Source: Candidatus Omnitrophota bacterium (lineage in GTDB: Bacteria; Omnitrophota; Gorgyraeia; Ghiorseimicrobiales; Ghiorseimicrobiaceae). Taken from it: 64,000 nucleotides of DNA. Positions 11,633 through 56,872 of the stretch are shown one piece after another (the stretch's first letter is position 1; each line of letters starts with the position of its first letter). Location: the NCBI GenBank assembly GCA_030681595.1, contig JAUXSB010000003.1, positions 31,207-95,206 on the forward strand. Direction: 5' to 3'. A program made the translations under genes and the position numbers. The notes beneath the pieces were generated by a model. That model made no database searches and was not told the DNA's origin. It worked only from the letters and a program-made list of their open reading frames with translations.

Positions 11633-11636
11633 ACTG

Positions 11637-11828: not shown

Positions 11829-13460
<1,632 letters not shown>

Positions 13461-38794: not shown

Positions 38795-39766
38795 TTAAGC
38801 GCCTTTTATCGGCCTGAATTCTTCAGAGCCATATGCCTTTAAATAATGGACATATGGCCCAAGACAAAGGCTATTGAATACGCACCCACTACAAGAAACC
38901 ACCTTCCTTCTAGAGGTATATTTAAATGAATCATCTTTATTCTTTACACTCACCAAATAACCTCTGGAAATTTTTAATATTACGCATCTGAACATCTCCT
39001 TGTCAATCTTATTAATTATGCAAAATGGCATAGAGAGAAAATATCTTGCAAAATATATAAATAAATCAGAATGATAACGATATCTTTTTGTATACAACTC
39101 TACGGCTTTTTTAAAATACCTTATGACCTTTGTATATCTGGGCATTAGAAAATGGTAAAAAATAAGGGAAGCGGCATGCGGCCTATAATGATCTATCATA
39201 AAACGCATTCCAGGAAACTGTTCAATTTTAAGCCTTACCAAAGATGGAATATCCGCATAATTTTGCGTTAAAAAAATACCGTTTAATGTTACGGGTAAAT
39301 CAAACCGAGATAAATTGTTCAATGCCTCCATCAAATCAACAAATGAACCTGGAGAATTAGTTATCGCATCGTTTATCTTTGCAGTAGATCCGTAAATAGG
39401 AACATGAAATCCATTAGCTCCTGCCGTTACGACTTTCTTTAGAAAAACAAAATTCTTTAATTTTCTTCCCGTGGTTTGAACGGTGATATTTGTAAAAGAT
39501 AATTTACGCGCAAAAACTAATAAATCAATAATGGATGAACGGTTCAGTATTTCGTTACCCGTAAAGCATATCTTGCGAAAACCAAGCGACTTCGCAAGGC
39601 GTATCCTACATTTAATTGTATTTATATCATCCGGCTCATCATGGGTAAGTTGTTGCGTATTTTTTCCATGTACTAATCGGCTGTTCTGACAAAACACGCA
39701 AGAGTTATCGCATTGCGAATCTAATACTAAAATTATTTCATCGTTGTTTTGGAGAATAGGCATCAC
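38795..39766 (-). CDS. Small radical SAM protein, paralog S13 (divergent)
   Basis: It has CDNSCVFC (CxxxCxxC), with FTGNEIL in place of GGEP. The C-terminal signature is CSGCVFNSLCLGPYVHYLKAYGSEEFRPIK. Confidence 0.7.
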   Translation of the reverse strand: MMPILQNNDEIILVLDSQCDNSCVFCQNSRLVHGKNTQQLTHDEPDDINTIKCRIRLAKSLGFRKICFTGNEILNRSSIIDLLVFARKLSFTNITVQTTGRKLKNFVFLKKVVTAGANGFHVPIYGSTAKINDAITNSPGSFVDLMEALNNLSRFDLPVTLNGIFLTQNYADIPSLVRLKIEQFPGMRFMIDHYRPHAASLIFYHFLMPRYTKVIRYFKKAVELYTKRYRYHSDLFIYFARYFLSMPFCIINKIDKEMFRCVILKISRGYLVSVKNKDDSFKYTSRRKVVSCSGCVFNSLCLGPYVHYLKAYGSEEFRPIKGA

Positions 39767-40650
39767 TTAACAGGTTTAAACTCTTGCCACCCAAAAAACT
39801 CAGGATATTCACGCCAGGGTCCCTCGCAAATTTTGAAATATTTGCATTCTTCACACTTCGGCCCTTTAAGTTTTCCATGTTCTCTGCGCCACTGGTTAAA
39901 ATTGGTTATCGGTTTAATATCAAATACCTTGGTTTCAGGAATAATCGCTTCACTAGCACAATTGGCATATTCGCTTAAAAAACAATACGGTATGGCTTCA
40001 GTTTTTGGCATTTTTTTCTTCCTAATGCCAATTTCCAGGCCGCGTTTTAAATAAAGAATAATATCTTTTTTCTGCGGTATTAGCCAACTATGATTCGCTA
40101 ATGCGTTTCCTAAAATATGAGGAAAGGAAAAACGATATTCAACCACCCCTAAGCCAACTAACATCAAAGCAATCTTAGGTAAAAAGCGGTAATTCAATGC
40201 AGTAATAACTGTATTAGTAAATACTACGCGACCAGAAGAAAGGAGATGCTTAATACCACAAATCGTCTGAGCGAAACTTCCCCTCGCTCCCGTATGGCTA
40301 TCATGCAACTCAGCATTATGTCCATGTACCGATATAGTAAAAAGACTTGCACCTGCCTCTATCATTTTTTTACAAAAATCTTTATACCTAAACATTCTTC
40401 CGTTGCTTTGAATATGAACAATATATCCTAACTTTTTAGAATATCTTACCAAGTCTATGATATCAAAACGTATTGTAGGTTCTCCACCTGTAAAAATTAC
40501 CTCTTTATAACTATCTTTCGAATCAGCTAAAATAGTTTCTATCTGTGAGCGCGCCATATCGTTGTAGATTTTGCGCTTGTTACCTTGGACACAAAAACTA
40601 CAGTGGTTATTACATCTAAAACTAATTTTTATATCCAGCCTCTTATGCAT
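39763..40650 (-). CDS. Small radical SAM protein, paralog S12
   Basis: It has RCNNHCSFCVQG, FTGGEPT, SVHGHNAELHD and IPYCFL. The C-terminus is CEECKYFKICEGPWREYPEFFGWQEFKPVK. Its closest paralog is 55967-56872. Confidence 0.85.
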   Translation of the reverse strand: MHKRLDIKISFRCNNHCSFCVQGNKRKIYNDMARSQIETILADSKDSYKEVIFTGGEPTIRFDIIDLVRYSKKLGYIVHIQSNGRMFRYKDFCKKMIEAGASLFTISVHGHNAELHDSHTGARGSFAQTICGIKHLLSSGRVVFTNTVITALNYRFLPKIALMLVGLGVVEYRFSFPHILGNALANHSWLIPQKKDIILYLKRGLEIGIRKKKMPKTEAIPYCFLSEYANCASEAIIPETKVFDIKPITNFNQWRREHGKLKGPKCEECKYFKICEGPWREYPEFFGWQEFKPVK

Positions 40651-40681
40651 ACATCTATCCTAACCTTAATTATCCGTTGTC

Positions 40682-41614
40682 TTACGGCTCGCTTTTAACA
40701 TGTTTTATTGTCTCTTCTTTGGAAACAAAAACAGCGTATAGTTCTTGCGAAGAAAAATATTTATCCATCGCATAAAGGCCGGGACATATTTCATTCAAAA
40801 AACAAACACTACAACACTCAACCTTGCCATATGACCATCCTCTTTGGACTTTAAGGCCCTTTTCATCTAAGAAATAAATCGCGCGCTTCTCTCTCTTTAT
40901 TATTTTTCTGGCTTCCGTAGAACAATGTGCAAAATCAGCCATGTAACATAAGGGTACGCGTTCCGCCCTAAAAGTTCTCTTTTGCTCGGCTAAAAAATGC
41001 ATTGCCCTATTGAGCTCTAATTCAAAATCTATCAGTCGGGGAATCGTATCGGGATTTTCTGATGCGCGGTTCATCGAAGGGTCAATATTATTCCAGATAA
41101 AATGGCGAATAAACGGATATCTATTCACAAGCCACGCCGTAATTCTGCTTAAATGATCGGCATTATATTTATTAATCACGGTAATAACATCAACCTGCAA
41201 ATTTAACTTTTTGGCATTGTTAAGCGTTTTTTTAATGTTACATAAAGAATCCTTGTTCTCAGTAAGAAAACCCTGAATATCAGCACTATCAGAGTAGATG
41301 GATAAATTGATATGGTTTAATCCTGCCTCTGCCAATGAGTTAATATATTTAAAGTCGGCTGTTTTTTGGCCATTCGTTATTATTCTGACTGGAAAATTTT
41401 TGTTTGTTGCATACGCGATCAATTCAATGAGATCTGGATATAGGGTCGGCTCTCCTCCGCTTAAAATAACCCCATCGCAACCTATCTTGACATAATAATC
41501 AATTAACTCCTTAGCTTTCTTAAGAGATATGGTTTTATCAAACGACGGATTAGAACAAAATCTGCATTTTTGATTACAAATACGCGTAACCTGTATATAA
41601 GCTAATTCGGCCAT
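40682..41614 (-). CDS. Small radical SAM protein, paralog S11
   Basis: It has ICNQKCRFCSNP, LSGGEPTLYP and VPLCYM. The C-terminus is CCSVCFLNEICPGLYAMDKYF. Confidence 0.85.
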   Translation of the reverse strand: MAELAYIQVTRICNQKCRFCSNPSFDKTISLKKAKELIDYYVKIGCDGVILSGGEPTLYPDLIELIAYATNKNFPVRIITNGQKTADFKYINSLAEAGLNHINLSIYSDSADIQGFLTENKDSLCNIKKTLNNAKKLNLQVDVITVINKYNADHLSRITAWLVNRYPFIRHFIWNNIDPSMNRASENPDTIPRLIDFELELNRAMHFLAEQKRTFRAERVPLCYMADFAHCSTEARKIIKREKRAIYFLDEKGLKVQRGWSYGKVECCSVCFLNEICPGLYAMDKYFSSQELYAVFVSKEETIKHVKSEP

Positions 41615-41618
41615 GTTT

Positions 41619-42644
41619 TCAGTAATTGCATTTATGTTTATGCTTGTTTTTTATTTCTGAATCAAATATGCTAATCCGCTCTAAAGTATGCAATATTTCT
41701 TTCGGATTTTTATCTGAAAGCGTTAGATTAAAATTAGGATAAACTTTTAGATAATCTCTTCTTACCCCCGGGCATATTTCACACAAAGAACAGCCTCTGC
41801 ATTCTCTGTATTTATAAAAATCTTCTTTGGCGATATCATTTTGAGTCCTGAGATTATTTATCCCGCGCGAATCAAGATATAAGTTATTATGATATAAATT
41901 TTCTTTTAATTCAACACTGGACCATTCATAAGAAGAGAGGATACATAACGGAAAACCGCAAGCAGAAATTTTATCCGTAGGGTTATCCCCTCCTAACGCC
42001 TTTAACGCTTTTAAAAGATAAGGCTGAATCTTATTTAGCGGAGGAAGTATCTTTTTGTAAAAAGTACTGTCATTGCCGCCTAAATCCATAAATTTAAATT
42101 TTACCCTGAATGGCGTATGCCTTAATATTTTTTTAAGATGAGTCGCCATGCCCTCTAATTCTTTATAATTCAAGCTATTAATTACCGTGTTGAAATTAAT
42201 CGCTAGCCTTTCTCTTATCTTTTTATTATCCTTATTAAATGATTCGATATTTAGTAAAGCCTTTTCCTGTAAAGAATGGCAAAACTTATTTCTTGATATG
42301 GCATTTGCAACCTTTGGGATATGCGAGTGAAAAGAAAAATTTATCTGCACGACTCCGCCTTTAATAACCTTAACTAAAAAATCATAGTAACTAAGCATTG
42401 AACCGTTAGTTGTAACCTTAAGTTTTAAATTACATTTTTTGGCTTCTTCCAATATTTTTAAAAAATCTGGCCTAATGAATGATTCCCCGGTCATTAACAT
42501 AACTGTATCTTCCTTGTAACTCTTAACTTTTTGAAACAATTGCCTAATTTCTCCAAAAGAAAGATCTTTTTTATGCTTATGCTGCCTATCCAGACAAAAT
42601 AAACAGTTGAAATTACATTTTTGGGTAATGCCTGTAATAATCAT
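41619..42644 (-). CDS. Small radical SAM protein, paralog S10
   Basis: It has KCNFNCLFCLD, LMTGESF and FPLCIL. The C-terminus is CRGCSLCEICPGVRRDYLKVY. Confidence 0.8.
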   Translation of the reverse strand: MIITGITQKCNFNCLFCLDRQHKHKKDLSFGEIRQLFQKVKSYKEDTVMLMTGESFIRPDFLKILEEAKKCNLKLKVTTNGSMLSYYDFLVKVIKGGVVQINFSFHSHIPKVANAISRNKFCHSLQEKALLNIESFNKDNKKIRERLAINFNTVINSLNYKELEGMATHLKKILRHTPFRVKFKFMDLGGNDSTFYKKILPPLNKIQPYLLKALKALGGDNPTDKISACGFPLCILSSYEWSSVELKENLYHNNLYLDSRGINNLRTQNDIAKEDFYKYRECRGCSLCEICPGVRRDYLKVYPNFNLTLSDKNPKEILHTLERISIFDSEIKNKHKHKCNY

Positions 42645-44734
42645 TAATTTTCTATCGGCTTTAAATCAGAAAACGAATAAATTAATGCGTATTCTCGCCA
42701 TACGCCATTACAAAAATTATATAAATTACATTTAACACAATTTGGCCCCTTAATTTTGCCTAAATTTAAATTATTTTCCCGCGAATTAAATCTTAAAGTA
42801 TTTTCGGTATATTCCACACATTGGCTAAGGTACTTATGCCATCCTCCTATACATAACGGGACACCGCAATATGGATTAAATATCATTAAATCACATTTTT
42901 TAGCCAGCTCGACTGCCTTTTTGATATAGGGAGAGATTATTCCATATGACGGTATAAGATACTTATTTATTAATGCCCGCTCCCGCGGCTGGATAACCGA
43001 AAGCGAGATATTTTTAATTTGGGGAAATTTATTATGAACAAATTTTATGTATTCGGGTAACTCTTTGTAATTTTGGGTAGTTATAACCGGATTTAAGGTA
43101 ACATCAATATTTAATTCTAATGAATTCCTAATCCCTGCGATAGCCATATCGAAGGCACCCTCCAACCCTACCAGCTTATCATGAATTCCAGGTACTGAAG
43201 AATGCAGGCTAATAAATAGCTTATTCAGCCCGGCATATTTCAATTTTTTTAAATAATCGTTATCGGATAGCCTTATCGCGTTAGTTTGAACCTGAACTAT
43301 TTTTACTCCTTTTCTATGGGCATATTTTATCAACTCCGAAAGGTCTTTTCTCAGGGTAGGCTCACCGCCGGTAATATCCAACTCCAACCTTAATTCCTTA
43401 TCAAGTGCGGTCAAGCGGCCTATTTCAAGTTTAGCCTGTTTAGTCGAAAGCTCTTTTAGAGCATACGATTCCGGAGGAACATTACAAAATAAACATCCGG
43501 CATTACACGCTGAGCCTAATCGTAAAAGCTTATATGGGGAGTTTTTCTTGACATCACCAATACTAATTTTCTTTAACCCGGCTTTAATCGGTGATAAAAC
43601 CTCAAATCCGTGCTTACGGATATAATTACACTGCATTCCAGCACAGCCTGCCATATGTTTGCACTCCTTGCATCTTTTACTTTTCAAAAAATATCTGTGT
43701 TGAATATAAAAATCAAGAAACTTTAAAATATCTTTATTTTTTTGGTCATTTTGCACATATACTGCCGGCCTGCCCGAATATCCCGGTTCATTTATTTCCC
43801 CTAAACAAAAAGGGGAGGCATGCGAAAGTATTTTATTTTTTTTCTTTAATTCTATTAAATCCTTACAAAAATTTTCTAAAAAACAAAACCGGCACCTCAA
43901 GCCTTTACAATCCATCACTTTGCCTTTAAAAAGAAAATTATTAAACATATCCTTGCGGCCGCCTACTTCATCGTATAATTTAGCCGGGTGCTGGATTAAA
44001 TATTCAAATCCTTCAAGATACTGCGGGGGGAAACGATTTGTCCATATATGTAGCCGCGGATCTTTGGATAGCATAAAAGCTTTGCGCAAAAATTTAATTG
44101 ATTTTTGAATATCATAAAAGAGAATATCCCTCTTAGCCCATGCTTGCCCAAATGGGATAACTTGCAAAAGATCAAACTCATATACGCCCAAATTAATAAA
44201 GAATTCTAAAATACTTGCTAAATACATTACATTAATTTTGTTTATCACAATATCAACACTAACAATCAAATCTTTTTCTTTTAAAGCATTAACTAAGGCT
44301 ACTAACGACTGCTGAAATGATCCCGGTACTTTAGTTTGTTGATCATGAAGCCTGCTATTATGCCCATGCAGCGAAAAGGTTATTTCTGATACACCGCTTT
44401 CTATTGCCTGCTTTAAGAAGCTCTGGTAGGCAAACATCCGGCCATTGGTAATAACTTGAATATGGCTGTATCCTAATGTCCTCGCCATATTAACAATATT
44501 AAAAAAATCCGGATGGATTGTTGGTTCTCCCCCGCTTAAAACAACTCGTCTTATCCCTAAACCTCTGCCTTTTTGTAAATCGGCTTTGATCTTCTCTAAA
44601 GGGATTACGCTCCCATCATGGGCTTCTTTATCTAAACAAAAGAGGCAGCGGTTATTACAACCCCGGGTTAGCCGTACCCAGTGTCTTTTTACCTGTGGTA
44701 TAATTTCTCGTTGCATAGAATAGCCTTTTATCAT
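42644..44734 (-). CDS. Fused di-domain radical SAM protein (paralogs S8 + S9 in one 696-aa polypeptide)
   Basis: There are two complete units. Unit 1 has GCNNRCLFCLDK...LSGGEPT...CKECKHMAGCAGMQCNYIRKHGFEVLSPIK. Unit 2 has ACNAGCLFCNVP...ITGGEPT...VPLCIGG...CVKCNLYNFCNGVWREYALIYSFSDLKPIEN. Confidence 0.85.
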   Translation of the reverse strand: MIKGYSMQREIIPQVKRHWVRLTRGCNNRCLFCLDKEAHDGSVIPLEKIKADLQKGRGLGIRRVVLSGGEPTIHPDFFNIVNMARTLGYSHIQVITNGRMFAYQSFLKQAIESGVSEITFSLHGHNSRLHDQQTKVPGSFQQSLVALVNALKEKDLIVSVDIVINKINVMYLASILEFFINLGVYEFDLLQVIPFGQAWAKRDILFYDIQKSIKFLRKAFMLSKDPRLHIWTNRFPPQYLEGFEYLIQHPAKLYDEVGGRKDMFNNFLFKGKVMDCKGLRCRFCFLENFCKDLIELKKKNKILSHASPFCLGEINEPGYSGRPAVYVQNDQKNKDILKFLDFYIQHRYFLKSKRCKECKHMAGCAGMQCNYIRKHGFEVLSPIKAGLKKISIGDVKKNSPYKLLRLGSACNAGCLFCNVPPESYALKELSTKQAKLEIGRLTALDKELRLELDITGGEPTLRKDLSELIKYAHRKGVKIVQVQTNAIRLSDNDYLKKLKYAGLNKLFISLHSSVPGIHDKLVGLEGAFDMAIAGIRNSLELNIDVTLNPVITTQNYKELPEYIKFVHNKFPQIKNISLSVIQPRERALINKYLIPSYGIISPYIKKAVELAKKCDLMIFNPYCGVPLCIGGWHKYLSQCVEYTENTLRFNSRENNLNLGKIKGPNCVKCNLYNFCNGVWREYALIYSFSDLKPIEN

Positions 44735-45693
44735 TTAATTGCCCTGAATTCGCCCCAGCCAACCTTTTCGGCATAAAGATTATCTATACCGCTGCATTTA
44801 TAATAATATTTGCATGGTTTACAGCTTTTATTTTTTATATTCCTTGATTCACGAGGTAATATTTCTACTCTTTTATTTTTAACCTGAAGTGGGATTTCGG
44901 ATTCCCCGACGTAATTTTCATAACCTACCATCAAACAAAGCGGCACAGGAGATATCTGTATAACGCCGGATAATCTAAACAGCTTATCTACTTTTAACCT
45001 ATCAATTACATTCCTAACTTCTTTAGCTACATCCAAATAAGTAACAAATAACTGACTGAAGAATCTTTCTGCGTTGCCGGAATACATTGGCATATTTAAC
45101 ACAATGCTATCTACTTTATTAAACGGTAAGATTTTTCTTAAGAAATTTTCAATATCTCTGTAGTTAATTTTTGTCATGGTAAAATTAACATTAAGCCGAA
45201 ATCTATATTTTTCCTTTAAAGAGACCATGTTGCATAACCCTTGCCATGTTTGTTCAAATGCACCGCTGCTACGAGTTAAGGCATCATGGATTTTTTTATT
45301 ACTCCCGTGAAGAGAAATATTAATCTCATTTAGCCCGCTATCTAATAATTCAATGCAAAAGTTTTTATATCTTAATAAACGCCCGTTTGTCTGTAGGCAA
45401 ATATCTTTATATCCCCACTTCTTAGATAATCTTATGAAATAAAGTAAGCCCTTATTCAGCGTTGACTCTCCCCCCGTAAATGATATGGAATCGACTTCTT
45501 TTGTTTTTCTTCCATCTCTTTTAAACATATCCAGATTTAAAAATGGTTCTCCGTTGACACTGCAATAATATTTTGACAACATATTCTGGCCATTAATACA
45601 ATCGCGATCACAGCAAAAAATACAATTATTGTTACAACACCCGCTGGTTTTAATATGAATTCTACTATCAGGGCTTATAATTACGTTATCCAT
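44731..45693 (-). CDS. Small radical SAM protein, paralog S7
   Basis: It has CCNNNCIFCCD, FTGGEST, SLHGSNKKIHD and VPLCLM. The C-terminus is CKPCKYYYKCSGIDNLYAEKVGWGEFRAIK. Confidence 0.85.
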   Translation of the reverse strand: MDNVIISPDSRIHIKTSGCCNNNCIFCCDRDCINGQNMLSKYYCSVNGEPFLNLDMFKRDGRKTKEVDSISFTGGESTLNKGLLYFIRLSKKWGYKDICLQTNGRLLRYKNFCIELLDSGLNEINISLHGSNKKIHDALTRSSGAFEQTWQGLCNMVSLKEKYRFRLNVNFTMTKINYRDIENFLRKILPFNKVDSIVLNMPMYSGNAERFFSQLFVTYLDVAKEVRNVIDRLKVDKLFRLSGVIQISPVPLCLMVGYENYVGESEIPLQVKNKRVEILPRESRNIKNKSCKPCKYYYKCSGIDNLYAEKVGWGEFRAIK

Positions 45694-45696
45694 TCT

Positions 45697-47055: not shown

Positions 47056-47063
47056 ATGAATAA

Positions 47064-47990: not shown

Positions 47991-47994
47991 ATCA

Positions 47995-48912
47995 TTATTT
48001 AATCGGCTTTATTTCGCGATCACCATAATATTTTAGGTATATATCCCAAACACCTTTACACTTATCAGCAATCTTACAAAATAAACATTTTCTAATTTTT
48101 ATTCGATTAATTATTTTTTTTGACTCGATATTTTCGTACTGTTCAATTTTATTTTTAGATATCAACCGAGGCGTACTTTCAAACGAATATTCATTTTCCT
48201 CGATAGTACCGGATATCTGCTTAAGATAGTCCCCAAAATAGCATAAGCAGGGAACATTTAAAGCCGCATAGCTAACCTCATCATCTAACCGCCCAATATC
48301 TAAAAATTTGCGAATATAATACGCGGCTGTAGAAATACGCGGCGTATATTTATAAAAATCACGCGGGGAACTAACATAAATGAGGCATGCCGTTTTTATC
48401 CCAACACGATAGATTAACTTACCTATATCATATAAATATTTATAATTCTGCTTAACAATTACCGTGTTTGTACCTATATTATCAAACCCGAATTTCCTAA
48501 GGTTGGCAATCCCTTCCTTAAGATGTTTAAAGCTCCCCTCTACCTGCGATAGATAATCGTGTAATTTTGCATTATGCCCGTTGATCGTAAAGATTATACG
48601 AGAAATTCCTGCCTCAATAGCCCTACGAGTAAAATCTTCATAAGAGAAAAACCTGCCATTTGTAGTCAAAGTGATATTTTGAAAACCTATATTTTTGGCA
48701 AATTTTAGCAAATAAAAAAAGTCCGGCCTAATCGTAACCTCCCCCCCGGCAAAAAAAGCATCAACAGCCCCAGCTTTTTTCGCTTCTTTAATCTCCCGCA
48801 TTATTTCCTGTGTCGTTTTAACAGGAATACCCCTATATGCCCTATCGCCGCAAAAACGGCAATAATTATTACAGGAATAACCGGTAAGAAATTTTGCTGT
48901 TTTATCTTGCAT
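47995..48912 (-). CDS. Small radical SAM protein, paralog S5
   Basis: It has SCNNYCRFCGD, FAGGEVT, TINGHNAKLHD and VPCLCY. The C-terminus is CLFCKIADKCKGVWDIYLKYYGDREIKPIK. Confidence 0.85.
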   Translation of the reverse strand: MQDKTAKFLTGYSCNNYCRFCGDRAYRGIPVKTTQEIMREIKEAKKAGAVDAFFAGGEVTIRPDFFYLLKFAKNIGFQNITLTTNGRFFSYEDFTRRAIEAGISRIIFTINGHNAKLHDYLSQVEGSFKHLKEGIANLRKFGFDNIGTNTVIVKQNYKYLYDIGKLIYRVGIKTACLIYVSSPRDFYKYTPRISTAAYYIRKFLDIGRLDDEVSYAALNVPCLCYFGDYLKQISGTIEENEYSFESTPRLISKNKIEQYENIESKKIINRIKIRKCLFCKIADKCKGVWDIYLKYYGDREIKPIK

Positions 48913-48922
48913 TGATAATAGT

Positions 48923-50455
48923 TTATTGCTTGGAGTTAGAGTTGAAGCACCGATTGTACTGCCCGCATTCTCGGCAAAATCCCCGCCATAAGTTTAAATT
49001 GAGATTATCCACCATAAGGCGACTTTGTGTTAACGCCGCAAGATATTTCGATTTCTTATAAATACAATAGATCTCGGAATGATACAACTTCAAAATTTCG
49101 CTGATATCGGCTTCGGAAAAAAATTCTGTGCAATATGGGATGACGGATAAATTAGATTTGGAGAAATTATAAAAATCCTTTAAGGAATTTACTTTACTTA
49201 ATACTCCGTATTTTTCTGGATAAAGGAATAGTGGAGAAGCAGGGTCAATCGCAGTTGAGTCCTGGCGTATTTCAACATTCGCTAATCTATTCCGTATGGA
49301 ATTAATGAATTTTAATGTTTCATATATATTTTTTTTTGTTTCAAAAGGCAAACCCGCGGAAAACGATAAGCATAATTTAAGATTTTTTTTATTGGCATAC
49401 AATAAAATCTCTAATATTTCATTATTTGAATAGCCCGCCTCTTTATTCATTTTCCTGATTTTTCGCGATCCGCTTTCTAAAAAAATTGAAATAATTGACC
49501 CCCTTTGAAATGTTTTCGCGAATTCGTCAATAAATACCTTTGTTGATAATCTGCAATCACCAAAATTTATAGTTAGGTCGATTTTATTTTTCCGTATTTC
49601 TTTAAACAAATCCATAAAATATGCATCATTCTGGCTCACCGCATACATATGCAGTTTATTGATATTATATTTTTTCAGTCTTTTTAAATCCTTAATCACA
49701 TATTTCACATCGGCAAAAACAATTTTACTTCTCTTGTTAATATTTTTTTGGGCCGAACACCCTCCCCCACAAAAAGAACAGCTCCTGACGCATCCCCGGC
49801 TAGCAGTATAATAAAATATTGGTTCGCTATCCTTATTGTTTAAATCCATAGAGAAGAATCTTATATATTTATCGTGGTTACGAATAAGTTTAAAGTTCGC
49901 ATATGATAATCTGTTAATTATGGCTTTGCCGGCAACATAAGTATGGGGGTTTTCAACTATGCCTTCACCGTCTCTCCATACCAAGTTCGGGATAAGGCGC
50001 AACCCCTCCGGAGATTTACTTCGGATACTATTTAAAAGCGCTAATAAAGGGATTTCCGCATCACCCTTGATGACAAAATCTATTTCTTTATATGTACGCA
50101 TAATTTCAGTGGCGAAAAGTGAAGCCGTCATCCCGCCTACTATCACCGTAATCTTTTTAATCCCGCGTTTTAAATATTTAATCGCCTCCAATACTTCGTA
50201 TGTATGCTGATACCAATGAAGATCAAATAATACTGCCCAATAACCTCTACTTATAACAAAATTTTTCAAGTCAAAACTGGGATTTAAGCTTTTTTCCAGG
50301 CCCAGATGAATAATAGACGGTTTAAAGCTATTTTTTGATAAATAGTCTGCGATGCCTATCATGCCGCGAGGCATCAATTTTATGCTAGGATTTTTCCCCT
50401 CTCTGGATACATGGACAAAACAAACTTTATTATTAAGCTTAAGGTTAGCAGCCAT
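48923..50455 (-). CDS. B12-binding-domain radical SAM enzyme (class B)
   Basis: 510 aa. The N-terminal Rossmann-like cobalamin-binding region reads VIVGGMTASLFATEIM...DFVIKGDAEIPLLALL. This is followed by ASRGCVRSCSFCGG and a C-terminal CRECGQYNRC. Confidence 0.75.
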   Translation of the reverse strand: MAANLKLNNKVCFVHVSREGKNPSIKLMPRGMIGIADYLSKNSFKPSIIHLGLEKSLNPSFDLKNFVISRGYWAVLFDLHWYQHTYEVLEAIKYLKRGIKKITVIVGGMTASLFATEIMRTYKEIDFVIKGDAEIPLLALLNSIRSKSPEGLRLIPNLVWRDGEGIVENPHTYVAGKAIINRLSYANFKLIRNHDKYIRFFSMDLNNKDSEPIFYYTASRGCVRSCSFCGGGCSAQKNINKRSKIVFADVKYVIKDLKRLKKYNINKLHMYAVSQNDAYFMDLFKEIRKNKIDLTINFGDCRLSTKVFIDEFAKTFQRGSIISIFLESGSRKIRKMNKEAGYSNNEILEILLYANKKNLKLCLSFSAGLPFETKKNIYETLKFINSIRNRLANVEIRQDSTAIDPASPLFLYPEKYGVLSKVNSLKDFYNFSKSNLSVIPYCTEFFSEADISEILKLYHSEIYCIYKKSKYLAALTQSRLMVDNLNLNLWRGFCRECGQYNRCFNSNSKQ

Positions 50456-50536
50456 TTAAAAGCGTGAAAATGTGTTTTCTTTCGAATAAATACGCAAATT
50501 ACTGTGAATCATTTTTTTAAATTTACGGTTATCCCC

Positions 50537-50775
50537 CTAGGTGTTTAAAAGTATATCCCGTATAGACGAAGAGGTTTTTCCGATATCATCCAAACTTTTT
50601 ATATCATTCACTGTGCCAAAATAAAATTCTCTTTTTAGCTTTTTAAATTTAGTCTCAAGCAATGGCCCCCCACAAAATATATCCCCCCGTCGCAATCAAC
50701 AGCCGGTTCAGAAGATATGATCCGCTCACCTTCCCGAATTTTGAAATTCGCTATAAAATTAATAATCTATTGATA
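50537..50775 (-). pseudogene. Possible decayed or frameshifted small ORF in the only large intergenic gap of the cluster
   Basis: Two overlapping minus-strand frames read ...EGERIISSEPAVDCDGGIYFVGG and GGPLLETKFKKLKREFYFGTVNDIKSLDDIGKTSSSIRDILLNT*. Adding one G in the G6 tract (50666-50671 on plus) would fuse them. No canonical start codon is present. Confidence 0.25.
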
Positions 50776-50800
50776 CTGGGTAAAACTTGCGTATCCATAA

Positions 50801-51742
50801 TCATTTTATCGGCTTTAATTCTGAATCGCCGTATAGCTTATAATAAGGCCGAAAAATTCCTTTGCAAAAATTATTTTTTTTACATACCCTGCATAATCTG
50901 GTTTTAGCGGCCATTGGGGTAGAGCGATTAATTTTTCGCAGGCGCAAAGAACCTTTCTTGTACTCCATTCTATCGTATTGCTCGTTAGCCTCTGCACTAC
51001 AATCATCTATATTGCCTGAAAAATCAGGCAGTACACAAGAAGGAACCCCAAAAATCCTGATATTCATCTTCAGGATTTGAGCTAAATTAAAAATGAGATG
51101 CGCTTTTTTTTCCCATTTACTTAACCTTACCGTATATTCCATGATAAATTTTTTATTTGCCGTTACGGGGACCATATTTGAAAATAACACCCTCTTTACT
51201 CCCAAATTATGCAACCCTATAATTATATCTTTTAAATATGGAAAATTATATTTTGTGACTACGGAGTTAGTTAATAAGTTAATTCGCGGATTTATGTCCA
51301 GGATATTCCGTAAGGCGCCGATTACTTTTTTGAAACTTCCGGGATTATTGGTATGACTATCATGAAGCCCAGCATTATGGCCATGCATAGAAATAACTAT
51401 CTCATCAATAAATGGGACTACCTTAGCCGCGAAAGAATACGAACTAAGCATAACGCCATTAGTGTTAAGATGCACCTCAAAACCATGGCTTTTTGCGGCA
51501 TAAAGAACATCGAAAAAATACGGATACAGCGTCGGTTCTCCCCCGGTAATAAATAGTGAACTATATTTCCCGGAATTTTTTTTAAAGAATGCGGTAATCC
51601 TATTCAAAGCAAAAGGTTGTAGGCTAAGATTCTCCTGTGCTCTGTTATCGGCTTCCAAACAAAAATCGCAATTGTTGGTACAGGCATAAGAAAGCATTAT
51701 TTCTAAGCGCTTTATTTGCTTACTCTTCTTCAATGTATGCAT
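50801..51742 (-). CDS. Small radical SAM protein, paralog S4
   Basis: It has ACTNNCDFCLE, ITGGEPTLYP, SMHGHNAGLHD and VPSCVL. The C-terminus is CRVCKKNNFCKGIFRPYYKLYGDSELKPIK. Confidence 0.85.
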   Translation of the reverse strand: MHTLKKSKQIKRLEIMLSYACTNNCDFCLEADNRAQENLSLQPFALNRITAFFKKNSGKYSSLFITGGEPTLYPYFFDVLYAAKSHGFEVHLNTNGVMLSSYSFAAKVVPFIDEIVISMHGHNAGLHDSHTNNPGSFKKVIGALRNILDINPRINLLTNSVVTKYNFPYLKDIIIGLHNLGVKRVLFSNMVPVTANKKFIMEYTVRLSKWEKKAHLIFNLAQILKMNIRIFGVPSCVLPDFSGNIDDCSAEANEQYDRMEYKKGSLRLRKINRSTPMAAKTRLCRVCKKNNFCKGIFRPYYKLYGDSELKPIK

Positions 51743-53114
51743 CTAAGTCTTGATGTTCTATATCATTAATTCTACTTTTAGCAACAGAATACTTACTTTT
51801 AAAAATATTCATAACTTTTTTGCTGTAAAAAATTTTGGATAAGATAAAATACTGTTTTTTATCCTTAAAATTTGGCCGAAAAATTAAACTGCTGTCTAAA
51901 CAATTTAAATTTCGCTTTAAAAAACTAATTTCTTTTTTAAAGGCCGGATTAAAATCAACGCCAAACAGCTTAAAAAACTTTCTTTTGTTTATCCCTTGAT
52001 AAAGAAACTTAATAATATAATATCTGCTTTCTTCATCCCTGTTCATTTTATAGCCATTATATAACTGGGCTGATTTAAAATAATTATTAATACCGGTTGA
52101 TAAACGGTAACATCTGTTTGCAAACGCATAAGATATCGCGCCGTATCCTAAGCCCAAAATAGATACCTTAAAATCTGGGGACTCAAATAAATTAATCTGC
52201 GGGTTTATTGCTTCCTTTGATAAAGCCGACCCTGCGCGGCCGATGCTTTTATAGCCAGAAAATTTCTCTAAAATATTTCTCTTGATATCAACCATCATCT
52301 TCCTTCTTCTTATGTCGCGTTGCGTAAATTTAAAATTTTTCCTTGAAAATAAGGTATTTTTATCTGGCAAAAAAGGATTAACATGAATAATATCGGGGTG
52401 CAATTTAACAACCATCAATAATGATTTAACGAATGACTGTATTGTCTGCCCCGGTAAGCCAGCCATTAAATCAATATTCAAATACGGAATGCCTATTTCT
52501 CTTGCCTGAGTAAACGCTCGGTAAACTGAATCTCGGGTTTGTTTTCTCGCCATCTTTACCAATACTTTTTTATCCAGTGTTTCTACGCCGATAGTCAGGC
52601 GCTTTAATCCTAGATCCTTAAGTAATCTTAACTTACCGCTATCAAGAGAATTCGGATGCGCATCAATGGCGAATAAAAAATAATCCTCAAAGCAGAACTT
52701 TCCTTTTATGTATTGAATCAAATCTGCAATCTGCTGGTTTCTCAATACAGTCGGCGTGCCTCCTCCTATATATAAAGAACTAAATTTAATGCCCCTGAAT
52801 AGGCTATGAAAAGAATCGATTTCTTTCTTTAAAGCTCCCAGGTAAGTATCAAGCTGAGAGAAACTCGATAGCGGGAAAGAAACACAATTACAATAAACGC
52901 ATTTTGTCTGGCAAAAAGGAATATGTATATAAAGGCATATTTTATTAAGACGGGGGTCTCGCTTTAAATTACGGGCAACGTTTTTCCATGATTTAATAAT
53001 CTCATCCTTGCTAACATTAGACCAAATCAAAGGCGGAGGATATAATACGGGATAACCATCTTCCAAAGAATGCAATGTGATATTTGTAAAAAGCGCATTA
53101 TCCATAATATCCAT
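51720..53114 (-). CDS. HemN-like radical SAM enzyme, copy 1
   Basis: 464 aa. It has LYIHIPFCQTKCVYCNC, LYIGGGTPT and KRLTIGVET. It is a paralog of 45697-47055. Confidence 0.8.
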   Translation of the reverse strand: MDIMDNALFTNITLHSLEDGYPVLYPPPLIWSNVSKDEIIKSWKNVARNLKRDPRLNKICLYIHIPFCQTKCVYCNCVSFPLSSFSQLDTYLGALKKEIDSFHSLFRGIKFSSLYIGGGTPTVLRNQQIADLIQYIKGKFCFEDYFLFAIDAHPNSLDSGKLRLLKDLGLKRLTIGVETLDKKVLVKMARKQTRDSVYRAFTQAREIGIPYLNIDLMAGLPGQTIQSFVKSLLMVVKLHPDIIHVNPFLPDKNTLFSRKNFKFTQRDIRRRKMMVDIKRNILEKFSGYKSIGRAGSALSKEAINPQINLFESPDFKVSILGLGYGAISYAFANRCYRLSTGINNYFKSAQLYNGYKMNRDEESRYYIIKFLYQGINKRKFFKLFGVDFNPAFKKEISFLKRNLNCLDSSLIFRPNFKDKKQYFILSKIFYSKKVMNIFKSKYSVAKSRINDIEHQDLDAYIEEE

Positions 53115-54082
53115 TAATTAATAGACGTGAAATCGTCAACGCCAAAATTATCGATATAATCTTTATATGGCCCGATACAGCTGTTCCTTCTCTTGCAATC
53201 CAGGCATTTATCAATCGGGGGATTTTGAATAATTACCTCCTTAGCATATAAATTGGGGTAAGAATCTAAATTTAAAACTTTTTTATCAAACGCAATACAA
53301 AATGGAAGTTCGGAAGAAGCGTCGTTTAGTTTACCGAATCTCTCCAAAACACAAACCGGAAAACCACGGAGAAATTCTTTTGACTTTTTTAGCTTGAAGA
53401 ATAAATTACGATACGGAACCATTAAATCCTTATAGTTAATGTCCTTGGGAAATGGATGAAATTTAACATGGATGAACCCATCAAAAAAAAATCTTGGGAA
53501 GGCATAATTACAAAACCCGAGAATATCATCTAAAAAACAATAATTTTGCTTTAATACAATGGAATGAAGATTGATATTCAACTCCCTAATCTTATTTAAT
53601 GCGCGTAAAACGCTGACAAGCGCTTCAAATGAACCTTTTTTCCGGACAACTCTGTCATGCACTCTAGCATCGGCGCCATAAATCGGTATATAGAAATTAA
53701 ATTTTAAAGGCAGACGCAAGATATTATCTAATGTATCTTTTTGTCCTAATTTTAACCCGGAAGTATGCAGATTGACTTCTTCATAGCCAAGCTTATGGCT
53801 AAAATTTAAAATTTGCGCTATAAATGGATGTGCCAGAGGCTCATCACCGCTTAAAAATATCTTTTTTAACTTTAGCCGCCTTCCAATGGCTAAAAGCCCT
53901 TTTATCCTAAACAATTCGCTATTAAGGCTATTATTTTTAATTTTACCCGGCTTACCGGGATAATTGGAAGTGCAAAAAATACAGTCATAGTCGCATTTAC
54001 TTGAAATTGGCAGAAGCGCATATTCAATTTTATTTAAAAGGGGCAAATTCTTTGTCACCATAGATTTTAAGGTATTCTTCAA
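53114..54082 (-). CDS. Small radical SAM protein, paralog S3
   Basis: It has KCDYDCIFCTS, LSGDEPLAHP, IYGADARVHD and FPVCVL. The C-terminus is CLDCKRRNSCIGPYKDYIDNFGVDDFTSIN. It overlaps the upstream gene by 32-53 nt, depending on which start is used. Confidence 0.8.
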   Translation of the reverse strand: MKNTLKSMVTKNLPLLNKIEYALLPISSKCDYDCIFCTSNYPGKPGKIKNNSLNSELFRIKGLLAIGRRLKLKKIFLSGDEPLAHPFIAQILNFSHKLGYEEVNLHTSGLKLGQKDTLDNILRLPLKFNFYIPIYGADARVHDRVVRKKGSFEALVSVLRALNKIRELNINLHSIVLKQNYCFLDDILGFCNYAFPRFFFDGFIHVKFHPFPKDINYKDLMVPYRNLFFKLKKSKEFLRGFPVCVLERFGKLNDASSELPFCIAFDKKVLNLDSYPNLYAKEVIIQNPPIDKCLDCKRRNSCIGPYKDYIDNFGVDDFTSIN

Positions 54083-54977
54083 AGATTCCTCCGCATACAG
54101 AAAATAGCCGGCATTTTATACATTTAGCGATTTTTATTCTCGACATATCAATTATATTGCTGGAAAAATTTGATATTGATTTTCGCGTGCTTATTTCCCT
54201 ATTCCAAAGGCACATTTCTGAGTCATTCTTAAACCTTTTACCTATCCTCATCTCTGGCTCATAAACTTCAAAAGCATACATAAAATTATCCTTGCCTAAA
54301 ATACATAACGGCACGCCCCCGAATCTTAACGGTATCCCGGATTCTTTTGAATATTCTGCCAATTTAAGGATATATTGCTTAAGCTTACTAAAATTTACTA
54401 CTAAATTTTTATAATCGTTTTTCGCATTTCCGCTAGGGACCAAATTTAAGTACCTTACGCAGCGGGGGCTATATTTAGACACGACTTTAAATATATCCAG
54501 CAATGACGCGGCATTATGTTTTGTTATGGTTACATTTACAAGAAATGCTTTTTTATAATATTTCCTAACATTTTTAAAAGCTTTTATCAATATCTTAAAA
54601 CTATTCTTATTGCCGGTATGTAAATTATGCACATATTCATCCGGGCCTTGTATTGAAAGGCACAAATCGTCGATATATTCAAAAGCCCTATTGCAAAAAA
54701 CTTTATCGGTAAACATAACACCATTCGATATAACATAAATTTGATAATTTAGATTTTTTGCGGCATGTAAAATTTCAAGAAACTTAGAATGCAAAGTTGG
54801 TTCTCCTCCCATAAAATGGACTAAACGCGCTCCCCGCTTTTTCTCTTTTTTCAGAACTTTTATTATAAATCCAAACGGGAGTTCACTATTATCAAACCTT
54901 GAATTCTCGCTGCAAAAAATACAGTTATTTGAACATTTATTCGCGATAAATAATTCTATCCTGTTTATTTTAAACAT
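54030..54977 (-). CDS. Small radical SAM protein, paralog S2
   Basis: It has KCSNNCIFCSEN, FMGGEPTLHS, SIQGPDEYVHN and VPLCIL. The C-terminus is CIKCRLFSVCGGIFEEYLKIYGDKEFAPFK. Confidence 0.85.
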   Translation of the reverse strand: MFKINRIELFIANKCSNNCIFCSENSRFDNSELPFGFIIKVLKKEKKRGARLVHFMGGEPTLHSKFLEILHAAKNLNYQIYVISNGVMFTDKVFCNRAFEYIDDLCLSIQGPDEYVHNLHTGNKNSFKILIKAFKNVRKYYKKAFLVNVTITKHNAASLLDIFKVVSKYSPRCVRYLNLVPSGNAKNDYKNLVVNFSKLKQYILKLAEYSKESGIPLRFGGVPLCILGKDNFMYAFEVYEPEMRIGKRFKNDSEMCLWNREISTRKSISNFSSNIIDMSRIKIAKCIKCRLFSVCGGIFEEYLKIYGDKEFAPFK

Positions 54978-55977
54978 ATGATTTATGTTTTATGGAAAAA
55001 TGCAGGTCTGCCTTATAATTCATGCCCTGATTTCGTTTCCTGTCCGTACTGATAATGCATGGATACATAACAAAATCATTTTTATCGCAAATTTTAATAA
55101 GATCTTCAATCGCGTTAAGATGAGATCTTAAATTCCAGCATTTCAAAAAATTAAAAATCTCTTTGTACGAGCTACTGAAATCGGAAATATTGTTTTCGTA
55201 AATTTTTAATATTTTTAACGGAATAAGGTGGCCGCCCTTATCAAAACGGTATGCGATTTGGTAAAAAGCGGACTTTTCTTTTGTGAATTTTTCAAAGAAA
55301 TTTTCAAAATAAGCATACTGCCGCCAAGTAAGCAGGTCTCTATACCTGCCTAAACTCAAATGCTTTGAATAATTGTATATTTTAATGCTGTATGTTGAAT
55401 CGCAAAAAAAATCTATCCCAATAACACTTATTAAATAATCTTTTAAGGCAGTAATAATATCTTCGCCATTAAAATTTATAATTTTACTAATAGTTGAAAT
55501 TTTGTTAAGCCTGCTCTTTTGAGAATCAGAAATGAGTAATTCTTCTAAGTATATTTTTAATCTTGGGTATGAGCCTATAGGCCAATCCATGCCGAATGTG
55601 GTCTGATGTTTATCCCTAACTTTTATCGCATTGAAAATCTCTTTAAGCTTGAGTGTGTTGTAGCGTGTTTTATAATTATAATTCAATACGTTAAAAGCAT
55701 TAATTATTTTTTTATCAAATGATTGTTTTTCATTATAATTGTTGTAGGTAAACCTAAAATTTGAAATATGGTCATACCCTTTGATTAAAGAAAAGGAAAA
55801 GTCAAATTTAAAATGCGCCGGGACATCTCTATGGTTGGAATGTTTTATTATCGAATCTTTTACTGCGCTTACAACTTTTTTATTAATGCTACCGCCTATC
55901 TCGCCTAACAGATAGCCTATAATATTCGAGATGGATAAAAAAAATAAACGATTTCTATTTATTGCGCTATCGCCCAT
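54970..55977 (-). CDS. Hypothetical protein (unknown family) embedded between radical SAM genes
   Basis: 335-aa ORF that overlaps both neighbours (8 and 11 nt). It has no Cys motif and no feature I recognise. Confidence 0.5.
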   Translation of the reverse strand: MGDSAINRNRLFFLSISNIIGYLLGEIGGSINKKVVSAVKDSIIKHSNHRDVPAHFKFDFSFSLIKGYDHISNFRFTYNNYNEKQSFDKKIINAFNVLNYNYKTRYNTLKLKEIFNAIKVRDKHQTTFGMDWPIGSYPRLKIYLEELLISDSQKSRLNKISTISKIINFNGEDIITALKDYLISVIGIDFFCDSTYSIKIYNYSKHLSLGRYRDLLTWRQYAYFENFFEKFTKEKSAFYQIAYRFDKGGHLIPLKILKIYENNISDFSSSYKEIFNFLKCWNLRSHLNAIEDLIKICDKNDFVMYPCIISTDRKRNQGMNYKADLHFSIKHKSYV

Positions 55978-56872
55978 ATTTTTTTAGGACAGGGACAAAT
56001 TCTGACCAGCCAAATTTTTCAGGATACTCTTTCCACGGCCCTTCACAAATTTTATAATGATAGCAATGCCTGCAAGACAAATTCTTCGCTTTTCCTTCTT
56101 TTTTACGTACTTTCGTAAAATCATCGATAACCTTTCCAAGGTCATAAATTATTGTTTCGGGTATAATCTTTTCAGCGATATAATCTTCATAGCCTTGCAT
56201 GAAACAATAAGGTATTGCTTCTGTCATGACTTTTTTATTAGCCTTGATACCTATACCCAAACCTTCCTTAACATAGGGCATAACCATTGAAATTCTCGGC
56301 ACAACAGAATAAAAATTATCGCCTGCCGAACCGGCAGCATGGACAAATGCAAATTGAAATTGGTCAACGCCAAGTTTTACCAAAAGCTCAGCGATTTGCG
56401 CTAGATGCCTATAATTAGGTTTAGTAATAACCGTGTTAGTGATTACAGTTTGATTTCGTTGTTTTAAATTTATTATTCCCGCGACAGTCTCGTTAAAGCT
56501 GCCGGCAGAAGAAGTCAAATAATCATGGACTTGGGCGATATGCCCATGGAGTGCCGGAGAAAATTCATTCGCCCCTGCGGCAATAATTTCATCGCAAAAC
56601 TTTTTATAATAGAATATCCTGCCGTTAGTTTGTATTTGGATAATTTTAAATTTCAATCTTTTGGCATGGCCAACCAAATCTAAAATATCGCTTCGTATTG
56701 TAGGCTCGCCTCCGGTAAAAACAACCCCATCGCAGTCTCGCCTGGCATCCTCTAAAATCTTCTTTATAGCAAGAGTATCTTTATCGCTTTGCAGGTGTCT
56801 CTTCTTGCCCTGGACGCAAAACCGGCAATGGTTATTGCAAGCAAATCCGATTTTAATATCAACTCTTTTCAT
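55967..56872 (-). CDS. Small radical SAM protein, paralog S1
   Basis: It has ACNNHCRFCVQG, FTGGEPT, ALHGHIAQVHD and IPYCFM. The C-terminus is CRHCYHYKICEGPWKEYPEKFGWSEFVPV. Confidence 0.85.
   Translation of the reverse strand: MKRVDIKIGFACNNHCRFCVQGKKRHLQSDKDTLAIKKILEDARRDCDGVVFTGGEPTIRSDILDLVGHAKRLKFKIIQIQTNGRIFYYKKFCDEIIAAGANEFSPALHGHIAQVHDYLTSSAGSFNETVAGIINLKQRNQTVITNTVITKPNYRHLAQIAELLVKLGVDQFQFAFVHAAGSAGDNFYSVVPRISMVMPYVKEGLGIGIKANKKVMTEAIPYCFMQGYEDYIAEKIIPETIIYDLGKVIDDFTKVRKKEGKAKNLSCRHCYHYKICEGPWKEYPEKFGWSEFVPVLKKYGR

Follow-up and report, generated by a model that had tools for sequence, protein, structure and literature searches.

Thirteen HxsC-like radical SAM domains in one operon with an HxsA4-type His-Xaa-Ser precursor in a Candidatus Omnitrophota bacterium

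The window analysed here is a stretch of 64,000 nucleotides from a Candidatus Omnitrophota bacterium (assembly GCA_030681595.1, contig JAUXSB010000003.1, positions 31,207 to 95,206). Positions 38795-56872 of the window, read on the minus strand, hold 12 open reading frames (ORFs) that encode 13 radical S-adenosylmethionine (SAM) domains, numbered C1-C13 in the order of transcription. The array is part of a minus-strand operon of ~25 kb and ~25 genes (36033-60967), which also encodes HxsB, HxsD, an HxsD-like protein, an HxsA4-type precursor with His-Xaa-Ser repeats, and an A24-family peptidase. Judged by sequence, the 13 domains are diverged paralogs of the core of the maturase HxsC. An earlier reading of the array made from the letters alone (the sequence-only reading) was right about the 13 domains but missed the probable substrate gene HxsA4, HxsB, HxsD, and the A24 peptidase, which lie outside its coordinates. 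Related loci, given L-numbers, were found with an alignment of C1 orthologs, and each was viewed over ±10 kb. The genes of the operon, in the order of transcription, are as follows.

60542-60967, minus strand: HxsD, 141 residues (TIGR03976 score 55.4, cutoff 50; orthologs in related loci carry PF27806)
60352-60561, minus strand: HxsD-like small protein, 69 residues (NF038315, HxsD_rel, score 64.8, cutoff 41)
58892-60361, minus strand: HxsB radical SAM/SPASM maturase, 489 residues (TIGR03978 score 490.4, cutoff 370; SPASM domain PF13186 score 22.3, cutoff 21.5)
58155-58919, minus strand: Cys-rich protein with a lipoprotein-like signal peptide, 254 residues (no Pfam or NCBIfam match)
57829-58125, minus strand: HxsA4-type precursor, 98 residues (NF038313 score 60.7, cutoff 55)
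56859-57842, minus strand: radical SAM enzyme near the N-terminal cores of HxsB and PapB, without SPASM cysteines (PapB 130 bits, HxsB 82 bits, below cutoff)
55967-56872, minus strand: C1, HxsC-like radical SAM, the most conserved type (HxsC4 166 bits, HxsC 104 bits)
54970-55977, minus strand: protein of 335 residues (no Pfam or NCBIfam match; weak homologs in L008, L012, and L020)
54030-54977, minus strand: C2, HxsC-like radical SAM (motifs, alignment, NCBIfam)
53114-54082, minus strand: C3, HxsC-like radical SAM with GDEPL in place of GGEPT (motifs, alignment, NCBIfam)
51720-53114, minus strand: HemN-like radical SAM 1, 464 residues (STM4012, HemZ, HemN, and HemW at 150-183 bits, all below cutoff)
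50801-51742, minus strand: C4, HxsC-like radical SAM (motifs, alignment, NCBIfam)
48923-50455, minus strand: B12-binding radical SAM, 510 residues (Pfam B12-binding and Radical_SAM; TIGR04190 175 bits, below cutoff)
47995-48912, minus strand: C5, HxsC-like radical SAM (motifs, alignment, NCBIfam)
47064-47990, minus strand: C6, HxsC-like radical SAM (motifs, alignment, NCBIfam)
45697-47055, minus strand: HemN-like radical SAM 2, 452 residues (NCBIfam)
44731-45693, minus strand: C7, HxsC-like radical SAM (motifs, alignment, NCBIfam)
43577-44734, minus strand: C8, N-terminal domain of a 696-residue fusion, core type, two triads
42644-43576, minus strand: C9, C-terminal domain of the 696-residue fusion
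41619-42644, minus strand: C10, HxsC-like radical SAM with a divergent extended tail (motifs, alignment, NCBIfam)
40682-41614, minus strand: C11, HxsC-like radical SAM, core type, tail ...CPGLYAMDKYFSSQELYAVFV
39763-40650, minus strand: C12, second copy of the C1 type, 50% identical to C1
38795-39766, minus strand: C13, the most divergent paralog, GNEIL in place of GGEPT
37700-38770, minus strand: DUF483-like protein, 356 residues, GYPKCC motif (PF04467 score 22.3, below the cutoff of 25)
37215-37700, minus strand: TPR protein, 161 residues (several sub-threshold Pfam TPR families; TPR_17 passes, 24.9 against 24.4)
36033-36956, minus strand: A24-family (prepilin/Flp CpaA-type) GxGD aspartyl peptidase, membrane protein, 307 residues (PF01478 score 24.3, cutoff 26.5)

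Adjacent genes overlap or are separated by 0-31 nucleotides, except at two larger gaps, one of 345 nucleotides before the B12-binding radical SAM gene and one of 258 nucleotides before the A24 peptidase gene. The larger gap (50456-50800), directly upstream of the B12-binding gene, may hold an internal promoter; no riboswitch or other RNA is matched by Rfam in this gap or elsewhere in 34-64 kb. A terminator-like site (35927-35909) lies by the A24 peptidase gene. The GC content is ~35% across the island 36000-61600 (30-37%) and ~42% in the flanks (39-46%), which fits horizontal acquisition.

In total, the operon encodes 18 radical SAM domains: the 13 HxsC-like domains, HxsB, two HemN-like enzymes, the B12-binding enzyme, and one further enzyme (56859-57842), whose gene is conserved directly upstream of C1 in related loci. 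This gene probably starts at M40 (position 57842), because the longer ORF of 366 residues overlaps the precursor gene. The N-terminus of that longer ORF (56859-57959; MLRIITMLMLLLQ...MAPMAPMAP) is an out-of-frame reading of the HGS-repeat DNA of the precursor.

A CX3CX2C motif is located close to the start of all 13 domains (motif count), and a MAFFT alignment places a CxxCx5CxG triad near the domain end in a single register in 13/13. The shared layout and the positional conservation of the C-terminal Cys motif, both proposed in the sequence-only reading, are thereby confirmed. The position of the triad is common to 13/13 proteins of ~25% identity and therefore cannot be due to chance. The invariant columns of the alignment are, in C1 numbering, C12, C16, C19, E56, N153, P221, C267, C270, C276, and G278.

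The other elements ascribed to all domains are conserved less strictly. GGEPT is exact in eight of the 13 domains, and the other five have GGEVT, GGEST, GDEPL, TGESF, or GNEIL. The P-x-C cysteine is present in 12 domains, with C8 as the exception. The full tail with a strict P-[IV]-K ending is found in 5/13 domains and a looser tail consensus in ~10/13, the near-variant ends being PVL, PFK, PI-stop, AIK, and PIE, and the end of C3 being SIN. The tails of C10 and C11 diverge past the Gly and carry 43-60 extra residues, and that of C8 is internal, owing to the fusion with C9 in one 696-residue protein. A hidden Markov model built from the 13 domains and run on the window finds exactly these 13 and one weak generic radical SAM match.

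Pairwise identity among the 13 domains is 18-35%, with the exception of C1 and C12 (50%); C2, C4, and C6 share 27-35%. The low-to-moderate identity, the closest pair, and the three-member subgroup noticed earlier are thus all recovered. At 18-35% identity, recent amplification and an assembly artefact are ruled out. Orthologs of C1, C8, and C11 in other phyla (~50-60% identity) are far closer than any paralog within the window. Together, these values bear out the view of an old, diversified expansion of true paralogs, and the 13 domains may correspond to 13 distinct specificities or steps.

Pfam recognizes only the generic Radical_SAM domain in the 13 domains. In NCBIfam, the best matches of every domain are HxsC4 (NF038332) and/or HxsC (TIGR03977), all of them below cutoff. 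The HxsC4 scores of the 12 proteins are 56-217 bits, compared with a cutoff of 500; the best single domain scores 166 bits, and the value of 217 bits belongs to the two-domain fusion. The HxsC scores reach 104 bits for a single domain and 187 bits for the two-domain fusion, compared with a cutoff of 267.9. HxsC4 is the top match of most of the domains, and for C1, C2, C4, C5, and C6 the HxsC4 alignment runs to the C-terminal end of the profile, tail included.

For canonical HxsC, the references are hxsC genes from one Aeromonas plasmid and one Leptospira plasmid. A profile of the 13 domains aligns with residues 108-374 of the Aeromonas HxsC at 99% probability, and the alignment spans the HD block, IPHC, and CDDCASKAVCCG. 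Because it covers the PxC and CxxCx5CxG motifs, the four "auxiliary" cysteines are a trait of the whole HxsC clade. Hence the C-terminal signature, described as distinctive in the sequence-only reading, is so only in part: the cysteines already occur in canonical HxsC, whereas the Y..G..E..P(I/V)K extension is indeed distinctive. A second distinctive feature of the window domains is the loss of the ~105-residue N-terminal domain of HxsC; the CX3CX2C motif lies ~10-30 residues from the domain start in all 13, compared with ~117 in the Aeromonas HxsC. The best curated matches and the 99%-probability alignment place the domains in the HxsC clade, so they do not form an orphan family. Among specifically annotated plasmid-borne genes, the nearest relative is hxsC; one unannotated radical SAM gene of Clostridium perfringens ranks higher.

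A single-copy homolog with the same PPC cysteine and the tail CVGCDRNQKCGGIYNEYIQFYGWEEF is encoded on the C. perfringens plasmid NZ_CP075938.1 (L088). The cluster around it (5082-12745) is of the NHLP type of ribosomally synthesized and post-translationally modified peptide (RiPP) clusters. Its other members are a leader peptide of the Os1348 NHLP family, two DUF6365 proteins, a nucleotidyltransferase, another radical SAM enzyme, mtnK, and metK. Here, the family is represented among genes for peptide maturation.

His-Xaa-Ser radical SAM maturation is already known as a kind. The canonical His-Xaa-Ser (HXS) system, HxsD-HxsB-HxsC-HxsA, is an anti-phage system that stops the entry of phage DNA; HxsA processing and a change of +8 Da within an HxS repeat both depend on HxsB and HxsC, HxsC binds HxsD, one of the five repeats is modified by one HxsC, and the systems are 99.7% from Pseudomonadota and >99.8% four-gene (Li et al., Nat Commun 2026, PMC13128918).

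The window operon shares with this system the HxsB and HxsD equivalogs and a precursor with a signal-like N-terminus and tandem H-x-S repeats. HxsB is 36-38% identical to plasmid genes annotated hxsB. The catalytic core of the 13 domains, including the HD block, the PxC cysteine, and CxxCx5CxG, is likewise that of canonical HxsC. Unlike the canonical four-gene D-B-C-A cassette with a peptidoglycan-binding HxsA, however, the operon has ~25 genes and 13 HxsC-like domains instead of one, none reaching the HxsC cutoff. All 13 lack the N-terminal domain of HxsC and carry the Y..G..E..P(I/V)K tail. The window precursor is a protein of 98 residues that has its HGS repeats at the extreme C-terminus and no peptidoglycan-binding domain. 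The operon further contains the HxsD-like protein, two HemN-like enzymes, the B12 radical SAM enzyme, the further radical SAM enzyme, and the A24 peptidase, and the hosts are Omnitrophota, candidate phyla radiation (CPR) bacteria, DPANN archaea, and Myxococcota.

Curated HxsA3, HxsA4, HxsC4, and HxsD-like models are held by NCBIfam. Of these type 4 models, HxsA4 (NF038313) is passed by the precursor and the HxsD-like model (NF038315) by the small protein, whereas no window domain reaches the HxsC4 cutoff of 500. In the full-text literature searched, which yielded only the paper on the canonical system and passing mentions, the enlarged variant and the paralog arrays are not described. New with respect to this literature are the many-fold radiation of the HxsC core, the multi-domain fusions, the conserved module of C1, C8, and C11 with the A24 peptidase, and the distribution across domains of life.

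The HxsA4 precursor consists of a leader with the motif IKDFLLREEGKISKK, a hydrophobic segment, and a core of ~45 residues. Five of the seven H-x-S repeats in the core are HGS, and a Trp stands at its C-terminus; the core ends in HGSHGSHGSHSSHGSHGQW, or, over a longer stretch, ...GGHNSGTPHGSHGSHGSHSSHGSHGQW. The canonical HxsA model is not among the NCBIfam matches of the precursor, and no Flp, class III signal, or any other Pfam domain is found in it. In an alignment of 21 homologous precursors, the leader is conserved (K-I-K-K-x-I-K-x-F-L-x-S-E-E-G-K-I-x-K-K) and is followed by a hydrophobic segment, often KPD...A, and 4-27 H-x-S repeats, with a Trp at or beside the C-terminus in most. Two of the three homologous precursors tested (from L004 and L035) give weak, sub-threshold Pfam matches to collagen Gly-X-Y repeats; this match of the (Gly-Ser-His)n core is probably compositional.

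At the distal end of the operon, the A24 peptidase has the features of its family, being a polytopic membrane protein with two catalytic Asp residues, the second in GxGD. D22 and G100-D101 (GAGDAKL) are invariant among 54 homologs, so that both catalytic Asp residues are kept. In their sources, the homologs bear the name prepilin peptidase or CpaA, PF01478 is recorded for many of them, and the gene co-occurs with HxsC-like arrays in many loci. The ending of the operon with a CpaA/prepilin-type peptidase in which both catalytic Asp residues are conserved is reminiscent of Flp/Tad processing by CpaA/TadV. The Flp leader ends in ...DE-x-G immediately before the cleavage site, and the FL-x-S-EEG-K of the precursor with its ensuing hydrophobic segment is similar, a likeness that we regard as a lead only. 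In contrast to Flp, a charged KISKK follows the Gly of the precursor, rather than the hydrophobic N-terminus directly, and in contrast to Flp/Tad loci, the window operon has no pilus assembly genes.

The cysteines of the HxsC-like domains are conserved far beyond the window. In a set of 330 domains from ~80 loci, every ungapped sequence keeps the CX3CX2C motif (324/324) and the triad (294/294), and 245/300 keep the PxC cysteine. We predict the structure of C1 with AlphaFold 2 from 78 sequences (mean predicted local distance difference test score 95.3). In this model, a partial TIM-barrel core is followed by C223, a β-hairpin (residues 240-249), a helix (residues 252-260), and the triad C267/C270/C276. 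The best Foldseek matches of the model in the PDB are SkfB, BlsE, SuiB, and GDGT-MAS, with template modelling (TM) scores of 0.59-0.68 and identities of at most 20%; PDB sequence matches align with the core only and leave the tail uncovered. SkfB (6efn), BlsE (7vob), and SuiB (5v1t) are the best folds (TM ~0.64-0.68) and, like the model, have a β-hairpin and a helix between the core and the C-terminal Cys motif, although their identity to C1 is <20%.

A SPASM domain is defined by the seven-Cys motif CX9-15GX4C ... CX2CX5CX3C ... C and holds two auxiliary clusters. Only CX2CX5C and one upstream Cys are conserved in the 13 domains, so that neither the CX3C nor the last Cys of SPASM enzymes follows after CxxCx5C, and Pfam detects no SPASM domain in any of them. 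A further difference from twitch and SPASM enzymes is that the fourth candidate ligand is positioned upstream of the hairpin. A single auxiliary cluster of the twitch-like kind would suit the topology of the predicted model, in which a hairpin and a helix separate C223 from the triad. The model and the conserved cysteines are thus consistent with, but do not prove, one twitch-like or partial-SPASM auxiliary cluster per domain, ligated by the PxC cysteine and CxxCx5C, as the sequence-only reading suggested.

C8 is different in that it has two CxxCx5C triads and no PxC cysteine. Among the strong phmmer matches to C8 in other loci, which comprise C8-type orthologs and a few other paralogs, 50 of 56 have at least two triads. 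The C8 type consistently has two triads and lacks the PxC cysteine; its first triad reads C-x-[YFH]-C-F-[LM]-x-x-F-C-x-D, with the usual CxxCx5CxG a further 70-230 residues downstream; examples are the window gene (43577-44734), L022:5761-7155, and L043:10936-12330. In the C8 subfamily, the auxiliary cluster or clusters may be ligated in another way than in the remaining paralogs.

Homologs of C1 are numerous (>3000 at 55-90% identity), and a pattern scan with one genome per species recovers at least 526 loci with the gene. When 1.84 billion representatives are searched with the family profile, 5234 clusters match at E <= 1e-30. Among the hosts are Omnitrophota, many Patescibacteria, Myxococcota, Bdellovibrionota, Elusimicrobiota, Spirochaetota, Desulfobacterota, and DPANN archaea, the last with Woesearchaeota, Nanoarchaeota, Aenigmatarchaeota, and Micrarchaeota. 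The gene order HxsD, HxsD-like, HxsB, HxsA4, radical SAM, C1, and array recurs in related loci and is seen in records titled Omnitrophota, Parcubacteria, Saccharibacteria, Schekmanbacteria, Myxococcales, and DPANN archaea; Elusimicrobiota likewise count among the phyla with this architecture. HxsB lies upstream of C1 in at least 26 of 80 species loci, most of which also have HxsD and an HxsA4-type precursor, and loci with HxsB contain arrays of up to ~10 HxsC-like domains within 10 kb. An ORF of 58-75 residues occupies the position of the HxsD-like gene in L001-L005.

Best-hit analysis and clustering identify three core orthogroups: C1 in 80 loci (median identity 57%), the C8 type in 49 (47%), and the C11 type in 42 (51%). 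The C11 ortholog is usually the last radical SAM gene before the A24 gene. Orthologs of C5, C6, C7, and C9 are found in some loci, C2, C3, C4, and C10 have weak matches elsewhere, and C13 has no homolog except itself among 5.8 billion proteins. Many database proteins (among P0121-P0270) contain two to five stretches that match the HxsC-like profile, in up to ~1400 residues. The C8-C9 fusion of the window is therefore one instance of a trend, and the frequency of fusions of two to five HxsC-like domains argues that the paralogs work together.

A compact arrangement of four HxsC-like genes and an A24-like gene is found in ~22 loci, mostly of Myxococcota and Elusimicrobiota. In L022 (3746-11295, Oligoflexales), it is followed by a gene for a 614-residue radical SAM protein and flanked by housekeeping genes; about 20 similar loci, e.g. 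L040, L043, and L086, have the compact four-gene operon as well. The four-gene operon of L022 includes no precursor gene, and no gene for an H-x-S peptide is present within 10 kb of it. Its first radical SAM gene scores 340 bits with HxsC4 and encodes the closest HxsC4-like protein observed. At L010:9953-11351 and L011:6927-8298, two loci with ~41-44% GC and the labels Myxococcota and Bdellovibrio, no HxsC-like gene other than the C1 ortholog is present; a gene for a 152-residue protein starting with MAIFVVHEHHA comes directly after it, and no HxsA, HxsB, or HxsD is encoded within 10 kb.

We consider the chance slightly better than even that the array is a multi-enzyme maturation line for HxsA4, an enlarged "type 4" HXS system, whose product is then cleaved by the A24 peptidase and exported. 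In such a system, the ribosome would make the 98-residue HxsA4 with its leader, hydrophobic segment, and ~45-residue core. In the cytoplasm, HxsB, HxsD, and the HxsD-like protein would engage the precursor, by analogy with the binding of HxsD by canonical HxsC. The HxsC-like enzymes, putatively all 13 of them, would next modify His, Ser, or Gly residues of the core in several chemically distinct ways, each enzyme using a SAM-cleaving [4Fe-4S] cluster and, very probably, one auxiliary cluster, with perhaps two in the C8 type. Methyl or methylene-type chemistry would be added by the two HemN-like enzymes and the B12-dependent radical SAM enzyme. Finally, the A24/CpaA-like GxGD peptidase would remove the leader at the membrane, and the product would leave the cell. 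The order and chemistry of these steps, the substrate of the peptidase, and the route of export are proposed rather than observed. The biological role may be that of a cell-envelope barrier, as in canonical HXS, or something else.

Several observations weigh against this reading. Loci with more H-x-S repeats do not have correspondingly more paralogs. The DNA-binding model of canonical HxsA is based on Arg residues, and these are absent from the HGS repeats. The link between the precursor and the A24 peptidase is circumstantial, because neither an Flp nor a class III signal is detected by Pfam in the leader. No HxsA, HxsB, or HxsD is encoded within 10 kb in the ~22 loci with the four-gene set, and a C1 ortholog occurs alone in L010 and L011 and with only a C8-type partner in L030. 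Therefore, the core enzymes do not strictly need an adjacent HxsA4 gene.

These solitary and compact loci are the basis of an alternative in which some or all of the HxsC-like enzymes, especially the conserved C1, C8, and C11, use a substrate other than HxsA, such as a small molecule, a lipid, a nucleotide, or a protein encoded far away, the HxsA4/HxsB/HxsD module being only one of several linked partners. We regard this as rather unlikely. It is favoured by the identity of 55-70% among C1 orthologs across bacteria and archaea, which is unusually high for a RiPP tailoring enzyme, by loci in which no precursor gene lies within 10 kb of C1 and C1 is either solitary or part of a four-gene set with an A24-like membrane protein, and by structural and sequence neighbours among which are enzymes of small molecules (BlsE and viperin) and of lipids (GDGT-MAS). 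However, the likeness to viperin and BlsE is restricted to the generic radical SAM core, and the nearest curated family, HxsC, is a protein maturase. In at least 26 of the 80 species loci, moreover, HxsB, mostly together with HxsA4, is found directly upstream of C1, and the conserved partner is a prepilin-type peptidase, implying a protein substrate.

A second alternative, which we judge unlikely, is that the array is mostly redundant or fast-evolving, with a few core enzymes doing the chemistry instead of 13 obligatory steps. C2, C3, C4, C10, and C13 would then be duplicates with alternative specificity, with a regulatory function, or in decay, kept by a defence-type arms race. In line with this, clear orthologs in many loci exist only for C1, C8, and C11, C13 lacks a homolog and C2, C3, C4, and C10 have weak matches, the GGE motifs of C3, C10, and C13 are degenerate, array content varies greatly even among Omnitrophota loci, and the GC content of the island differs from that of its flanks (~35% versus ~42%). 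On the other hand, all 13 domains keep CX3CX2C and the triad and are encoded by intact ORFs in a translationally coupled operon, and the ±10 kb view of each locus means that orthologs of the distal paralogs may lie beyond it.

It is very improbable that each H-x-S repeat is served by a paralog of its own, with one chemistry throughout and specificity for position: the counts of repeats (seven, with several His residues) and of enzymes do share an order of magnitude, but the 13 loci in which both the precursor and the A24 gene are visible have 4-27 repeats and 0-14 HxsC-like domains between the two genes with no correlation (Spearman rho -0.13, p = 0.66, n = 13), and in canonical HXS a single HxsC modifies one of five repeats (PMC13128918).

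A further reading is tentative, and we hold it to be doubtful. Enlarged HxsA4 systems could make an unseen class of heavily remodelled (His-Gly-Ser)n peptide, through an assembly line of a dozen or more specialised HxsC-like enzymes, some of them fused with two to five domains per polypeptide, and release at the surface by a prepilin-type peptidase. They would have spread horizontally between bacteria and archaea, many of the hosts being ultra-small episymbionts (CPR, DPANN, and Omnitrophota) or predators (Myxococcota and Bdellovibrionota), and the product might be a surface structure for contact with host or prey, for metal binding, or for blocking viruses. If so, it would be chemically and functionally distinct from the effector of canonical HXS, which carries a single modification.

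The density of radical SAM domains is very high, with 18 around one 98-residue peptide. The HxsC fold has radiated into >5000 sequence clusters, often in arrays or fusions, and the system is common to bacteria and DPANN archaea at 55-70% identity. Spending ~20-25 kb on it in organisms with genomes of possibly ~1 Mb implies strong selection. The paralogs constitute a naturally separated set of enzymes for working out how HxsC-type enzymes act on His/Ser repeats, and, in uncultivated lineages, the locus could also bring to light a new function of the envelope or new chemistry on peptides.

With PADLOC 2023, which contains no HXS models, the only matches to known defence families are generic ones of the viperin model pVip to the radical SAM core. 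A phage-borne system was considered and rejected, as no relative is found among 2.9 million viral contigs.

Some further genes in and around the operon deserve mention. Homologs of the 254-residue Cys-rich protein are encoded between HxsB and HxsA4 in L001, L009, and L046, and another is present in L008, which is labelled Saccharibacteria. A second secreted or lipoprotein-like Cys-rich protein, of 196 residues and without a family match, is encoded at 61011-61601; it has only faint matches, upstream of HxsD in L001, L009, and L046. The gene for the 356-residue DUF483-like protein, at the distal end of the array, has faint homologs in L027, L033, L053, and L084, archaeal loci included. The flanks of the island contain housekeeping genes, namely those for LptD, a ROK kinase, a MiaB-like enzyme, and RsmE.

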